From positions 36,985-100,984 of IMG/VR virus record IMGVR_UViG_3300037808_000992: 64,000 bases of DNA. One strand, given 5' to 3'. How positions within the stretch are numbered: position 1 is the stretch's first letter; the number at the start of each line of letters is the position of its first letter. The position numbers and the translations under genes were made by a program. This document shows, piece by piece, positions 1,943-63,778 of this stretch. The notes beneath the pieces were generated by a model that saw nothing but the letters and a program-made list of their open reading frames with translations, was not told the origin of the DNA and made no database searches. Source of the DNA: a virus.

Positions 1943-4756
1943 GTGGCACGGTTTATTACATTTAACGGCGTAACCATTTTCCACCCCGGTGGTTTAACAA
2001 AAATTGACGCAAGTGATCTTGCCCAAGTCTCTGGCGGTACCAGTGGTATTGTGGGGCTGATTGGCGAAGCTGATTCAGGAGAACCAAATTCTGCTCTGAG
2101 CCCTAAAGTGCATGAGTTCATTAATCCGAACTCTGCAGTTCAGATGTTTAAGAGCGGTCCTTTGGCGGATGCAATCGACTTTGTATTCCGACCATCTACT
2201 GATCCACGGATCCCTGGCGGCGCACAGAAAATACTGGCTGTAAAAACAAATCAAAGTACTGCTTCGTCTGTTACTTTATCTGATCAGCCCACTGCTAATG
2301 ATGCAATGACCGTCACGTCGCGCACCTTCGGTAAAGCGGCTGAGCAGTTAAGTATTGAAGTGAATCAAACGGCTGCAGCAGCCGACCCATTTCAGAATAA
2401 AATGGATGTAACGCTTATAGACGCAGGGAGCGGCACTACAGAGACGTTTACGAGTATTGGTGGCACTCCCCTGATGAATGTCCAATACCGTGGTCCTAGC
2501 GCCCCTACAGTGCGTGAGACGGATGCTGGCGCAAGTGTACACACCGTGGTGTCCTCTGCAGCCCCTGATGAACTTGTTATAACAGGAAATATTACGACCG
2601 GTGCTGCGGTCGGTAACTTTGTTCGTATGAAGGCGGGTGGAACTGCTACCGCTGAGTTTGTTACCGGTCAGATGTCTCGAATTAGAACGATTGCGTTTGG
2701 TGGCGTAAATACAGTAATTGAGCTTGATGCGGACTTCAGCGAGAATGACGGCTCTCAAATTACTGCTGCAAACTTAGCCACAGCTACATTTGAGGTTGTT
2801 CGTGAAGTTGTAGGCCCTTTCCGAGCAGTTTCAGGCACTGCTAACACGGTAGTGATGAATGGTGCCCGAGATACCAGTGGTTCAGTTGCGGGTGATCCTT
2901 TATTAAATTTAGCTGCTGGTAATTGGGCTGCTAACTACGCTTTGGTTACTGAAGGCTGGTGCTATTTAAAGATTGTAGCAGGTACCGGAGCGGGTCAAAT
3001 TCGTCGTATTAACAACGCCGGGTCATCAGGCGCAGTCGCTCCAGGTGTTGGGGCCGATAACTTAGAAATTGAGTTAGAAGTACATGATGATTGGGACACG
3101 CAGCCCGATGGTACGTCTCAAATCATGCTTATTAACGCTGCTGCGCAAGCAGCGCACAGCGCGACAGACAGCGATAATGATTGTGGTGCTCAAGCGCGTA
3201 TTCAAGGTGGTGCAACTACAGCTACTCGCGGCGCTGCTGATAAACTCTTTTTAGAGGTTATGCCCGGTACTGGTGAGGATGATGGCGGTGGTACGGTAAT
3301 TGTTCCTGGAGGTGGCGCAGGCGGTGCTGGAATTGCCGGTGTAGGTTATGTTGAGTATTATGAGTTTCCTTTAGGCGGGAGCATTTCAGTCTCTACCTTA
3401 GTAAACCGAATCAAACTTGGTATTAATGCTTCTTCCACCAATACTGAGGTTGCCTCAGGTAATATTGATCCTACAAAAACTGCATGGAACGCTAGAGTTG
3501 GATTAGGTCGTAGTGGTGATCTTACTACTGACCGATTCGATTTTATGTTGGCGACAGGTACTCGATTAACGACGGATGTTACTAACGGCACTAATACTGT
3601 TGCGGCTCCTACAGCAACTTCTCCTTCTGTAGACGCTCTTGTTGACTTTAACCAAGTGTTTAATAACACCTGGGATTCAGCAGGCAACAGTCTTAAACGG
3701 CATCGTTTACTAGATAATTTAGCAATTTTAATCGACACGATTAATGCTCAAAGTTTGTTGATGAGTGCTGAGCGAGACGCAAGTGGTGTAGCGCCAGTGT
3801 CCAACGGAGATGGTGTTCCCGTATTTGGTGTCATAAACAATTTAGCTGGTGCGACCGTAGGCGCTTCCACCTTCCAAACTATTTCTAATGCCTTTGATCA
3901 GCTAATTAAGCATCGTCACGATACTGCTGTGGCGTTGTTTAGTACAGGCGTTGGTGGCGTTACTATTGATAGTATCCACGCTCTATTAGAGCAACACACT
4001 ATTAATGGTGCTGGAGCGTTTAAAAACGAAGTTGATGGAATTGCAGCGTTTGACCCACCTGTTGCAGCGACGGCATTAGCTGATGTAGTCACGCAAGCCA
4101 ACGCTATCGCTAACCGAAATATGGCTTTGGTGTACCAAAAGCCCACTCGTATTAATGCTCAGGGTGTAAGAACAGAATTTGGTTCTCACATGCTGGCAGC
4201 GGCTATTGCAGGTATGCAGGCTGGATCTCCGGTAGGTACTCCACTGACGTTTAAGTTTGTACGGGCTATAGATATTACGAGTCCTGCAAGTGCCGATCCC
4301 CTCGACGTAGATGACGCTACGATGATGTTGAAGAATGGAGTGTTGTTCTCTGAGAAGGTAAGCAACGGATTCCGTATTGTTCGGAACCTGAGCACCTTTA
4401 TCCAGAATGACAATCTTGCATTCACAGATCGAAATGTTAACTATGAGTTGAATTACATTGCTTATGACCTTCGTACTTTTATTGAAAATACGTTTGTTGG
4501 TACAAAAGCAATTCCCGCAACAGCCGTTAATATGAAAGACGCTGTAATTTCGAAATTAACAATTTACCGTGATGATTTAGAGATTATCACTAAAAGTAAT
4601 GATCCGGTTACCGGGCAAGAAATCGATGCTTTCAGAGATTTAAAAGTTACAATCTCTGGTGATATTGCAACAATTCGTTTTGAGATTTTCCCAACTATGG
4701 GTATAAACTTTATGACGTTCGAGATCTTTGCGCAACTACCGGTTATCAGTGCATAG
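1943..4756 (+). CDS. Contractile tail sheath protein, 937 aa, large central insertion
   Basis: N-term FNGVTIFHPGG...GLIGEADSGEPN...FKSGPLADAI; C-term AAAIAGMQAG..VGTPLTFK and FRIVRNLSTF are sheath hallmarks; SD AGGAG, GTG start. Confidence 0.92.
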   Translation: MARFITFNGVTIFHPGGLTKIDASDLAQVSGGTSGIVGLIGEADSGEPNSALSPKVHEFINPNSAVQMFKSGPLADAIDFVFRPSTDPRIPGGAQKILAVKTNQSTASSVTLSDQPTANDAMTVTSRTFGKAAEQLSIEVNQTAAAADPFQNKMDVTLIDAGSGTTETFTSIGGTPLMNVQYRGPSAPTVRETDAGASVHTVVSSAAPDELVITGNITTGAAVGNFVRMKAGGTATAEFVTGQMSRIRTIAFGGVNTVIELDADFSENDGSQITAANLATATFEVVREVVGPFRAVSGTANTVVMNGARDTSGSVAGDPLLNLAAGNWAANYALVTEGWCYLKIVAGTGAGQIRRINNAGSSGAVAPGVGADNLEIELEVHDDWDTQPDGTSQIMLINAAAQAAHSATDSDNDCGAQARIQGGATTATRGAADKLFLEVMPGTGEDDGGGTVIVPGGGAGGAGIAGVGYVEYYEFPLGGSISVSTLVNRIKLGINASSTNTEVASGNIDPTKTAWNARVGLGRSGDLTTDRFDFMLATGTRLTTDVTNGTNTVAAPTATSPSVDALVDFNQVFNNTWDSAGNSLKRHRLLDNLAILIDTINAQSLLMSAERDASGVAPVSNGDGVPVFGVINNLAGATVGASTFQTISNAFDQLIKHRHDTAVALFSTGVGGVTIDSIHALLEQHTINGAGAFKNEVDGIAAFDPPVAATALADVVTQANAIANRNMALVYQKPTRINAQGVRTEFGSHMLAAAIAGMQAGSPVGTPLTFKFVRAIDITSPASADPLDVDDATMMLKNGVLFSEKVSNGFRIVRNLSTFIQNDNLAFTDRNVNYELNYIAYDLRTFIENTFVGTKAIPATAVNMKDAVISKLTIYRDDLEIITKSNDPVTGQEIDAFRDLKVTISGDIATIRFEIFPTMGINFMTFEIFAQLPVISA

Positions 4757-4768
4757 GAGAGATTAGAC

Positions 4769-6190
4769 ATGCCAGCAATTAACGGTGCGAATAGAGAATT
4801 TTTCCTGACCATGCGTCAGAAGTACATGAATGGTAGCGGCCATACGCTACAGGGTGAGAGTGGTCTTTTGACTACTGGAGGAGCATGGCCCCTCATGACT
4901 AACTCCCCTGGGTGGTCCGTTACAGGTAATTTGGGGGCTTCGGCTCTAGCAGGCGAACAAGAGATTACGCTAGGAAGTGCTTCTGAAGCAGCGCCATTTC
5001 GCCCAGGTACTACGATTACTTTGTTTGACGCTACTGACAATACGGTAACTGAGTCAATTGTCGTTCTGTCGTCTAAAAACCAAAAGTTAATACTTGCTGC
5101 GGGTCTCGCTAACGCTTATGACCAAGGCTCTATCGTGGCTGTTCCGTTTGGCGTAGGTCCCGATGGTATTTCCACGAGTATGGACGTTACTGCAGGCGGT
5201 TGGACTCCTACTGGCGCAGGTGATGTAGCTACGTTAGTAGATCTCTACCAACGTGTTTGTACCAACCCGGCTGCGTTTGCAATTACAACTGCTGCTGCTC
5301 CACTTTTTACATTGGATATTGGGTCAACTGCTAATGTAAATACTTTGGTTGGCGACACGGTTACTTTTGTAGGCGATGTCACAGCAGGTCTTGCTGGAGT
5401 TACTGCACGTATTAGTTCAAACACAGCGGGCGCTAATGTAGTGATCGGTTTAGAGCAGATTATCGCAGTTAATGCTGCTGGCGAGACAGTGACTAGTCCA
5501 CTGTTTCCTATTGTTGTTGATGGAGTTTCTTTAACGCCGTCAGCCGCTGGTGCTGGTGACACTCTAAATATCGCTTGCACCTTCGTCCAAGAGAAGATTA
5601 ATGCTGTAGCGGTACCTAACAACGTAGATGCTGCAGGTAATTCTACCTCTAATCCTCTAACAGGTGCGTCTCAGGAAGGTTTGGGTGACCAAGGTCCTGT
5701 TATGGTTGCTGCTTGTCTCGGGGTTATTGACCAGTTGGGCGGAACCGCTCGCTTATCTTTAACCCAAGAAGAGAAGTTAATGGGTAGCTTTGGCTCTATC
5801 GGTAAACGACTTCTTTTAGCTCAGGATGAAGCAATTGCTGCTACTACAATCACCTTAGAGTGGGATGAGGCTGCTGGAGACGTTCCGTTTCCTTTAGCAG
5901 GCATAATTGAAATTCTAGATGCCGAGACAGGTGTTGACAGTACTGCCTTTGCCCAACCGTTACTGGTCCACACGAGTACTTTCACTCGGGCACGTGGTAG
6001 CCGTACTTTAACCTTAGCGGTTGCTCTTCCGGCTGGTGGTGCAACCACTGGTATGATTGTACAGCTTTCCCCAGGGCAAAGTGGTCCAATCTTCTTACCG
6101 TATGCCTCTGCCATTGATTCTAAAGATATGGCTCAGTTGCTTACATTGACTGAGATTGCAGTGACCGCACACACTAATCCTGCTCCGTAG
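4769..6190 (+). CDS. Putative virion decoration protein (Ala/Gly/Thr-rich beta modules)
   Basis: 473-aa ORF with AGGAG SD between sheath and tube; shares repeat modules with baseplate proteins. Confidence 0.5.
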   Translation: MPAINGANREFFLTMRQKYMNGSGHTLQGESGLLTTGGAWPLMTNSPGWSVTGNLGASALAGEQEITLGSASEAAPFRPGTTITLFDATDNTVTESIVVLSSKNQKLILAAGLANAYDQGSIVAVPFGVGPDGISTSMDVTAGGWTPTGAGDVATLVDLYQRVCTNPAAFAITTAAAPLFTLDIGSTANVNTLVGDTVTFVGDVTAGLAGVTARISSNTAGANVVIGLEQIIAVNAAGETVTSPLFPIVVDGVSLTPSAAGAGDTLNIACTFVQEKINAVAVPNNVDAAGNSTSNPLTGASQEGLGDQGPVMVAACLGVIDQLGGTARLSLTQEEKLMGSFGSIGKRLLLAQDEAIAATTITLEWDEAAGDVPFPLAGIIEILDAETGVDSTAFAQPLLVHTSTFTRARGSRTLTLAVALPAGGATTGMIVQLSPGQSGPIFLPYASAIDSKDMAQLLTLTEIAVTAHTNPAP

Positions 6191-6203
6191 AGCAGGAAGA
6201 ACT

Positions 6204-6337
6204 AGGGTCGGGGGTTATCCTCCTCCTATCGTGTCAGGGAATAGCTCAGTTCCTACGAGTCTATTCCCTGGTATGTAACCTTGACCTTATCTAAAATTAA
6301 CACGAAACTATTCTTAACCTTGTCGTAGGAGTCTGTT
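6204..6337 (+). ncRNA. Candidate cis-regulatory structured RNA upstream of tail tube gene
   Basis: Stems 6204-6217/6276-6288 and 6232-6244/6261-6273; TCCTACGA 6251-6258 complementary to TCGTAGGA 6323-6330 at the tube RBS. Confidence 0.5.
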
Positions 6338-6811
6338 ATGGCTATCGAAATTTTTAGTGGTGCAAGAGCCAAATTTTTTCTCAACAACCGAGCAATTGGT
6401 TTTTGTGCTGGTGTCAGCGGTGAAGAGGCAGTTGATTACTCACCTGTAGACACCTTGGACTTTCTTGAAGTTCGAGAGCATGTGCCTGTTGCCTATCGTA
6501 CTTCCTTAAGTGCGGCATTCTTCCGTTTAATTGGGTCTCCCCTTAAAGATTATACGGGTAAGGGTGATACGGACGCAGAGAGCATCTCCATCTTTCCTAA
6601 GTTTGAAAATATTCTTACGGATGGGTCGATGTCAGCATCTATTCAGTTAGCCCCCGGCAAAGGTGTAGATCAGTTCCCACAAGGGACGATCATGGCTAAG
6701 TTTTACAAGGTACGCGCCGCAAGTAAGACGTTTGATGTTTCTGCGCGTGGTGTAGTGACGGAGAACTGTTCGTTTGTTGCGATACGGCAAGCTGACGAAT
6801 CTACGTTGTAG
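6338..6811 (+). CDS. Tail tube protein
   Basis: 157 aa; FSGARAKFFLNNRAIGF...EVREHVPVAY; position after sheath, before chaperones. Confidence 0.85.
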   Translation: MAIEIFSGARAKFFLNNRAIGFCAGVSGEEAVDYSPVDTLDFLEVREHVPVAYRTSLSAAFFRLIGSPLKDYTGKGDTDAESISIFPKFENILTDGSMSASIQLAPGKGVDQFPQGTIMAKFYKVRAASKTFDVSARGVVTENCSFVAIRQADESTL

Positions 6812-6854: not shown

Positions 6855-7328
6855 ATGCAGCTAACTAAAAGTTTTAGTATCAACTTTTATTCTAAAATTC
6901 TTAAAGAGACCTTTGCAGGGACTTTTACTACTAAGAAATTAACGGTGGGAGATCTCTCTAAGATTGGACTTGTTAAAGCTCAATTGTCAGGGGGATACGT
7001 CTATGATGAGGTTCAAGGTCGTGGGGTAGATGCCACCACCAACCTACTCAATGAGATGGTAGCCCATTGTCAAGTATCCCTTATTCAATCTCCTGACTGG
7101 TTTAACCCAAGCGACGTTTCAGATTTAGAACTGTTGCGAGTGGTTTATGAGGAGGTGGCTTCTTTTGAGGCCGACTTTCACCTCCCACAGCAAGCATCTC
7201 AAGAAGAAGGACCTGCTGGAAGCAGCAAAGATTCAAGCAGCGATGAATCTACAGGGGGAGGGAGATCCGTTAGCACTCTTGAGGATCTGGTGGACAAAAA
7301 AGTACCAAAGATCGAGAAATTCGGATGA
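6855..7328 (+). CDS. Tail assembly chaperone (gpG-like)
   Basis: Between tube and tape measure; PDWF...LLRVVYEEV..FE core followed by a disordered tail. Confidence 0.75.
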   Translation: MQLTKSFSINFYSKILKETFAGTFTTKKLTVGDLSKIGLVKAQLSGGYVYDEVQGRGVDATTNLLNEMVAHCQVSLIQSPDWFNPSDVSDLELLRVVYEEVASFEADFHLPQQASQEEGPAGSSKDSSSDESTGGGRSVSTLEDLVDKKVPKIEKFG

Positions 7329-7650
7329 GTTTAAAGCGTATACGCTCTTTGACTTGCTGACTGAGTTTTTTGAGGACTTTTATAGCGACAATAAAAGTGC
7401 TCTACGTGATTTAGATCTGCCGTTTAGTGCAGGAACTGGTGATCCGATGGTCGATAAGTGGGAGCGTGAAATCTCTCAAGGGCTTATGCCGAACTTGTTA
7501 GAGGACTTATCGGAAGATGCCGCGAAGGAGATTTTAGAGTGGAGTCAGCGAGTCTATAAACAGAAAGTTGAACGCGGAGAGATTATGAGCCCTGAAGAAC
7601 TGGAATTGGCAAAGAACGTAGACATAGAAACGTTTTCGGATAACTACTAA
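7147..7650 (+). CDS. Tail assembly chaperone extension (gpT-like), probably reached by +1 frameshift
   Basis: Overlaps upstream ORF by 182 nt in +1 frame; LRIWWTKKY and TGDPMVDKWERE; abuts tape measure start (TAATG). Confidence 0.65.
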   Translation: MRRWLLLRPTFTSHSKHLKKKDLLEAAKIQAAMNLQGEGDPLALLRIWWTKKYQRSRNSDEFKAYTLFDLLTEFFEDFYSDNKSALRDLDLPFSAGTGDPMVDKWEREISQGLMPNLLEDLSEDAAKEILEWSQRVYKQKVERGEIMSPEELELAKNVDIETFSDNY

Positions 7651-63605: not shown

Positions 63606-63689
63606 GCCGGGATGGTGGAATTGGTAGACACAAGGGACTTAAAATCCCTTGTCCATACGGACGTGCGGGTTCAAGTCCCGCTCCCGGTA
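63606..63689 (+). tRNA. trnL: tRNA-Leu (anticodon TAA), CCA not encoded
   Basis: GCCGGGA/TCCCGGT acceptor stem, AGGGA-CTTAAAA-TCCCT anticodon arm, long variable arm, GGTTCAAGTCC T-loop. Confidence 0.95.
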
Positions 63690-63778
63690 CTTCGTTACCC
63701 AACCTATCATGACGATCCGAACTAAACTCAGCCCCGCAACAAACCTGATATTTTGCCAACCAACGGGTCAGTGTAGTC

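Follow-up and report, generated by a model that had tools for sequence, protein, structure and literature searches.

The 64,000-nt stretch of DNA analysed here, referred to as the window, is part of the 100,984-bp record of an uncultured virus, and the genes of the locus all lie on the + strand in the order tail sheath, gene X, a gap of 147 nt, tail tube, a chaperone-like pair and a 613-aa TMP-like ORF. The features flanking the gap are as follows.

1943-4756, + strand: tail sheath gene (phrog_279, E=1e-40)
4769-6190, + strand: gene X, 473 aa, no assigned function (ORF list; every relative has its syntenic counterpart between sheath and tube)
6180-6197, + strand: small hairpin CCTGCTC/GAGCAGG, the loop of which holds the stop codon of gene X (read from the sequence, no statistics)
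6338-6811, + strand: tail-tube gene, 157 aa (PF26461 on homologues, Atlas naming, synteny)
6855-7328 and 7147-7650, + strand: chaperone-like overlapping ORF pair (ORF list, synteny)

Judging from its homologues and its neighbours, the 157-aa gene is the tail tube, which places the RNA element described below in the tube leader, directly upstream of 6338-6811, as had been claimed from the sequence at the outset. PF26461 was precomputed on most of the 120 listed homologues of the 157-aa protein, the Atlas name being Phi812_tail_tube, and the Atlas places the protein itself beside Phi812_tail_tube clusters at 0.97-0.98. A search of the window's own 157-aa protein with a local copy of Pfam gave no match, a profile search of solved structures gave nothing, and the AF2 model of the protein was poor (pLDDT 54) and was left out of the analysis. 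Gene X has no match in Pfam or PHROG, and its Atlas neighbours are 'hypothetical' viral clusters only; it is 25-26% identical to the syntenic proteins of two relatives (L007 and L005). This level of identity is found among relatives whose tube proteins are ~65% identical, and the position of the gene is kept. The element had been framed in the initial annotation in terms of the sheath:tube ratio, a framing that does not fit the gene order, because the gene directly upstream is gene X and the sheath lies one gene further away.

Two other features of the locus may be recorded here. The chaperone-like ORF at 6855-7328 is overlapped for 182 nt by that at 7147-7650, which lies in the +1 frame (292 = 3x97+1); this overlap is the usual place of the programmed frameshift of tail chaperones but has the less common direction, and the same arrangement occurs in L005 and L007. 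The apparent gap of ~300 nt before the sheath gene (1655-1933) contains a short lysine-rich ORF with the start ATGGTTAAG and is therefore not non-coding.

The gap between gene X and the tube gene holds a single long irregular hairpin followed by a spacer and the ribosome-binding site (RBS) of the tube gene.

6204-6288, + strand: whole structured RNA element, ~85 nt, one long irregular hairpin (covariance model R1 match at 6202-6289, 57.4 bits, E=6e-11)
6205-6213, + strand: 5′ strand of P1, G-rich, pairing with 6279-6287
6214-6231, + strand: 5′ bulge, consisting of G-UUAU, the pyrimidine tract CCTCCTCCTA and a CUA-like end (GGGTTAT invariant in 15/15; tract C/U-rich in all)
6232-6244, + strand: 5′ strand of P2 and P2b, pairing with 6261-6273 in a continuous perfect 13-bp helix in this phage
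6245-6247 / 6257-6259, + strand: P3, CTC/GAG, with the 9-nt apical loop AGTTCCTAC at 6248-6256 (3/4 P3 pairs double-changed)
6279-6287, + strand: 3′ strand of P1, CCTTGACCT (alignment fold and covariation)
6289-6322, + strand: A/U-rich spacer, with the second TAACCTTG at 6315-6322 (read from the sequence)
6326-6340, + strand: tube RBS, UAGGAG at 6326-6331 (Shine-Dalgarno sequence, SD, AGGAG at 6327-6331), 6-nt spacer, ATG at 6338 (from the sequence)

The layout of the element is an outer stem P1, a pyrimidine-rich bulge of 14-19 nt on the 5′ side, the inner stem P2/P2b and the apical P3, a short stem with a pyrimidine-rich loop of 9-11 nt across members and the loop consensus A-R-U-U-Y-C-Y-Y-A-C. 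In the window, the outer stem comprises 6204-6217 / 6276-6288 with G6214 bulged, and P1 can possibly be extended by 2-3 bp beyond this bulged base (6215-6217 / 6276-6278). A second anti-SD tract, TCCTCCTCCT, lies at 6218-6227 within the 5′ bulge, and TAACCTTG occurs twice, at 6276-6283 and 6315-6322. The strings and positions given for these parts in the initial annotation are all correct in the sequence. P2/P2b of the relatives contains a CUU/UUC bulge together with conserved UGUAGC / CUACUUC sequences, unlike the unbroken helix of the window copy, in which the bases that bulge out in the relatives are paired with an inserted GAA. Folding of the window as a single sequence yields the stems, with a z-score of only -1.57 against shuffles; the window sequence alone is therefore a weak case, and support comes from comparison.

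Homologous loci were collected by scans based on the tube protein. IMG/VR yielded 9 distinct loci, and marine metagenomes, Tara and deep-ocean samples among them, yielded 27; approximately half of these tube loci carry a homologous element of ~90 nt in the same gap. The alignment contains 15 distinct element sequences, namely the window and 14 from marine viral or metagenome contigs. RNAalifold recovered P1, P2 and P2b from the 15 sequences, with double changes in 16/20 pairs; P3 was then added by hand and the covariance model R1 was built. In the alignment to R1, 95.5% of pair cells are standard and 19/24 pairs show compensatory changes, the double changes falling in 7/9 pairs of P1, 7/7 of P2 and 3/4 of P3. 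None of 500 shuffles matched the observed paired fraction, the number of double-changed pairs or the covariation score, and sliding the partners by 1-3 columns as a control left 29-43% paired. The gap before the tail-tube gene thus encodes an evolutionarily conserved folded RNA, as the initial annotation had proposed from the one sequence. Among the pairs of the element, G-U outnumbers A-C by 19 to 5, which indicates that the selected, functional form is the RNA of the + strand.

Conservation is not limited to the helices: ~30 near-invariant positions lie outside them or at their ends. These include GGGUUAU after P1, CUA before P2, UGUAGC / CUACUUC around the CUU bulge, the loop frame C-A...A-C-G and the ACC that opens the 3′ strand of P1. 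Such conserved unpaired nucleotides argue for a specific partner or three-dimensional fold over a generic hairpin. The copy in the window is the most divergent member, scoring 57 bits with R1 vs 75-98 for the others.

The element probably represents a previously uncatalogued structured RNA and a candidate new RNA family. The initial annotation had not assigned it to any known family, and this agrees with Rfam 15 (4227 models), which gave no match in the window region 5800-6800 at E<=10 and none on the element in 12 homologous loci at E<=1. No description of such a motif was found in the literature searched; one catalogue lists >10,000 candidate viral structured RNAs (PMC10690425), and the motif may overlap with it. 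The 5′ part of the element (6207-6228 and its homologues) resembles tRNA T-arm DNA, and most matches of the pattern GGTCGNGGGTT..CCTCCTA were T-arms of tRNAs, about 80 of them of phage tRNAs. The likeness lies in GGTCGRGGGTT...CCTCC, and the G-run, UUAU(A) and C-run of the element can form a T-arm-like hairpin; unlike a true T-arm, however, this hairpin competes with the better-supported P1. A tRNA-like identity was rejected, since the only tRNA that ARAGORN finds in the window is a tRNA-Leu with the anticodon TAA at 63606-63690, and the loop UUAUN lacks C56 and has a variable A58. The resemblance may be a coincidence or may reflect remote ancestry.

Position and distribution of the element are equally restricted. 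It always lies between the gene X of ~470-500 aa and the tail-tube gene, and in 15/15 members it is found 30-45 nt upstream of the SD/ATG, on the + strand and presumably in the same mRNA. R1 found exactly one copy in the genome of the window and in each of two element-bearing IMG/VR relatives, and no copy in three element-less relatives, one of which is a 128-kb record. Pattern scans of 2.9 M viral contigs (IMG/VR) and 185,579 species genomes (prokaryotes, one genome per species), filtered with the covariance model, gave only chance matches apart from the tube-leader copies and thus no copy elsewhere, and blastn and tblastn searches of the GenBank phage collection gave no match. The element is narrowly distributed and inherited vertically in a clade of marine myophage-like viruses.

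At loci without the element, the gap measures ~20 nt and the SD lies on the gene X stop codon or adjoins it; the SD is of the UAGGAGU type in most homologues, whether or not the element is present. In the tube-protein tree, the deepest ingroup branches include element-bearing rows, the element-less rows are nested or distant outgroups, and 2-4 changes are needed vs 9.8 for shuffled labels. The small number of changes and the nesting of the element-less rows fit one apparent gain followed by 1-3 losses within nested lineages; having been lost there, the element is dispensable.

The most likely role of the element is that of a cis-acting leader controlling the translation or stability of the tube mRNA. 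A more specific form of this proposal, in which anti-SD-like tracts of a cis-acting structured leader mask the SD, possibly with a trans factor, is given an even chance of being correct. The element would be transcribed together with the structural operon, and its stable P1-P2-P2b-P3 hairpin would keep three pyrimidine-rich segments single-stranded, namely the 5′ bulge, the CUU bulge (missing in this phage) and the apical loop; a strong, free-standing SD lies 30-45 nt downstream of the hairpin. Such a scaffold could set tube translation independently of gene X. The anti-SD-like pyrimidine tracts, above all that of the bulge, might mask UAGGAG in cis, and the masking might be stabilised or relieved by a trans factor reading the conserved unpaired nucleotides. 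What the comparison establishes is the fold with its conservation, strand, position and copy number; action in cis on the tube gene is inferred, and SD masking and any trans factor are speculative.

Several observations bear on this proposal. The single-stranded parts of the element are almost entirely pyrimidines, and a duplex of 4-6 bp between bulge tract and SD is possible throughout the homologues (mean -6.3 kcal/mol, with no cognate advantage, the SD being almost invariant). The SD of element-less lineages, situated on or close to the gene X stop codon, suggests that translational coupling replaces the element, which fits a role in setting tube translation; the tube RBS presumably became directly coupled to gene X after the loss. 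On the other side, the loss in nested lineages, by which the element is dispensable, speaks against the role, and much of the conserved sequence, including GGGUUAU and UGUAGC/CUACUUC, is unrelated to the SD. Because any C/U-rich tract pairs with a purine-rich SD, the complementarity between element and SD may also be incidental.

Pairing with the RBS was examined by comparing the best duplex energy with the own partner and with permuted partners across 12-13 independent lineages. The known helices behaved as expected of positive controls, P1 giving -16.2 kcal/mol for cognate vs -10.1 kcal/mol for non-cognate strands and P2 -6.7 vs -1.2 kcal/mol (p<0.0002 for each). No pairing between element and RBS showed a cognate advantage (p=0.16-0.72), and this counts against SD masking, within comparisons that have little power because the SD is almost invariant. 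The bulge pyrimidine tract gave -6.3 vs -6.5 kcal/mol (p=0.70), so that the second anti-SD tract seen in the initial annotation is kept as a pyrimidine tract and does not covary with the nearly invariant SD. The corresponding values were -6.0 vs -5.7 kcal/mol for the CUU bulge (p=0.25) and -5.3 vs -5.5 kcal/mol for the 3′ strand of P1 (p=0.72). In thermodynamic folds of whole leaders, a model to which pseudoknots are foreign, the SD mostly pairs with nearby spacer or coding bases in no conserved pattern.

A cis-acting leader has parallels in T4, in which a 5′ pseudoknot serves as the operator of gene 32 and leader hairpins occlude the RBS of late genes such as e and soc. Like these operators, the element is a structured 5′ leader of an abundantly needed phage gene, followed by an unstructured A/U-rich stretch and then the RBS, and it presumably acts in cis on the same mRNA, as they do. 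Unlike them, it has its RBS outside the conserved hairpin; it shares no sequence or model similarity with them, any pseudoknot in it is putative, and no nucleic-acid binding is known for the tube protein.

The main rival, which is unlikely yet the best placed of the alternatives, is a module for mRNA processing or stability, in which the two-part helix would be cut or would block nucleases, so that the tube mRNA would begin with a protective 5′ hairpin and an open A/U-rich ribosome landing zone and its output would exceed that of gene X. RNase III signals of T7 such as R1.1 lie between genes, and the element resembles them as an intergenic irregular hairpin with two helices around an internal loop in a polycistronic phage transcript. 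By this analogy, a lower helix of ~9-11 bp and an upper helix of 11-13 bp around an internal loop would recall the T7 sites; P1 (9-12 bp) together with P2/P2b/P3 (15-16 bp) amounts to approximately two helical turns of double-stranded RNA with an internal loop. An A/U-rich single-stranded flank just 5′ of P1 in most members, the unstructured A/U-rich spacer before the strong SD, and a gap with no promoter-like or terminator-like site are also in keeping with processing, and the extra hairpins that several members have at the stop codon of gene X would shield the upstream 3′ end. However, the internal loop of the element, 14-19 / 0-2 nt, is far larger and more asymmetric than that of the T7 sites, being practically one-sided, and generic stabilisers or RNase III sites do not require ~30 conserved unpaired or loop nucleotides.

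A sensor or catalytic RNA of a new class, riboswitch-like, a protein-responsive operator or self-cleaving, would use the conserved nucleotides of junction and loop to couple tube synthesis to a cellular or assembly signal, which might be, for example, free tube or chaperone protein; we regard such a class as improbable. Still more doubtful is its specific form, in which the conserved junction and loop nucleotides are the binding pocket of a switch that senses a ligand or protein, or the active site of an RNA that cleaves itself, and a hairpin between the G-run of P1 and the bulge tract is the alternative state. The large number of conserved unpaired positions is what such a switch would predict, and the G-run/bulge hairpin is the only secondary interaction that seems to have some support, with a cognate advantage of -6.7 vs -6.0 kcal/mol (p=0.012) and a register that varies; in L117 and L118 the fold of minimum energy has this hairpin instead of P1. 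For every member, P1 is nevertheless much more stable than this hairpin (-13.5 to -20.7 vs -3.3 to -12.6 kcal/mol), no riboswitch or ribozyme model matches at E<=10 in the window or at E<=1 in the 12 loci, a structural gene is an unusual riboswitch target, and the absence of the CUU bulge and of UGUAGC from the window copy would be unexpected if they belonged to a catalytic core. A triple helix of the bulge tract with P1 was rejected by reasoning only, the tract being the antiparallel Watson-Crick complement of the G-run and not a parallel Hoogsteen partner.

The initial annotation had favoured a kissing interaction of the apical loop with the tube SD, giving a pseudoknot or switch that sets tube translation, a mechanism that now appears doubtful. 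Its starting point stands: TCCTACGA at 6251-6258 exactly complements TCGTAGGA at 6323-6330, which overlaps the SD AGGAG at 6327-6331. When the 127 nt upstream are shuffled by dinucleotides, 3.3% of the shuffles contain an exact 8-nt complement to the 23-nt RBS window; the match is thus modestly unusual, and it was chosen post hoc. Read by eye, L117 could form ~7 bp (with G-U) between loop/P3 and RBS and L133 ~5 bp. The pairing is not a conserved mechanism, however: covariation across tube leaders, which had been named as a check on it, is not found between loop and RBS (cognate -5.1 vs non-cognate -4.7 kcal/mol, permutation p=0.16), and the -9.1 kcal/mol of the window is an outlier, most members attaining no more than -2.5 to -6 kcal/mol. 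Of the eight bases, two belong to the P3 stem. At the loop position facing the A of UAGG, L006 has U whereas L005 and L132 have C, and yet L006 and L132 share the same RBS; the CAC-type loops of six lineages (L005, L116, L121, L130, L136 and L138) cannot pair with UAG. Taken together, the permutation result, the U/C difference at the same RBS and the CAC loops show that the loop-SD kiss is not a conserved feature of the family. The pairing may operate in the window's own sublineage; the closest tube relatives, P0001-P0004, are 77-92% identical, P0001 and P0002 91-92%. The alternative outer stem, which the initial annotation had derived from the duplication of TAACCTTG, would pair the 5′ strand of P1 with the second, downstream TAACCTTG-like tract; it has no cognate advantage (-7.9 vs -8.3 kcal/mol, p=0.8) and is strong only in L118.

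Least likely is a trans-acting C/U-rich RNA processed from the operon transcript that binds SD regions in further mRNAs, of phage or host, much as do the C/U-rich anti-SD RNAs RsaE and RNAIII (hairpins) of S. aureus and RoxS of B. subtilis, which act in trans: the element, like these, exposes several UCC/CCUC-type motifs complementary to SDs in the loops of a stable fold, here as three C/U-rich segments on a stable scaffold, but unlike these, which have their own promoter and terminator, it is embedded in an operon upstream of one SD, its position before one gene is strictly fixed, no sigma-70-like promoter or terminator-like site was found in 6190-6340 (phage-specific promoters lying outside the scan), and no target was identified.

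The cis-acting structured leader is the reading retained here. Structured leaders by which the output of virion proteins is tuned have been found in a few model phages; to our knowledge, none has been described for the tail-tube genes of uncultured marine phages. Strong covariation, ~30 conserved nucleotides outside the pairs and an unchanging place in the genome make the element a well-defined candidate new RNA family, and its size of ~90 nt makes it a tractable case for asking how the supply of tube protein is set in phages with contractile tails.

L130, L133, L136, L137 and L139 have hairpins comparable to that at 6180-6197, which coincide with the gene X stop codon or follow it closely, directly 5′ of the element; those of L133 (~1050-1072) and L139 (~1042-1062) have GC-rich 8-bp stems, the loop of the latter being UUCG, and none of the stop-codon hairpins is followed by a U-run. 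The spacers of the homologues, of 30-45 nt, are A/U-rich and contain C/U tracts, and no co-varying pairing of these spacers with P1 or the SD was found. The spacers of L116, L121, L136 and L140 repeat a near-copy of the apical loop (CAGUUCC or CAAUUC), not its complement, and loop and near-copy could be two sites for one binding factor.
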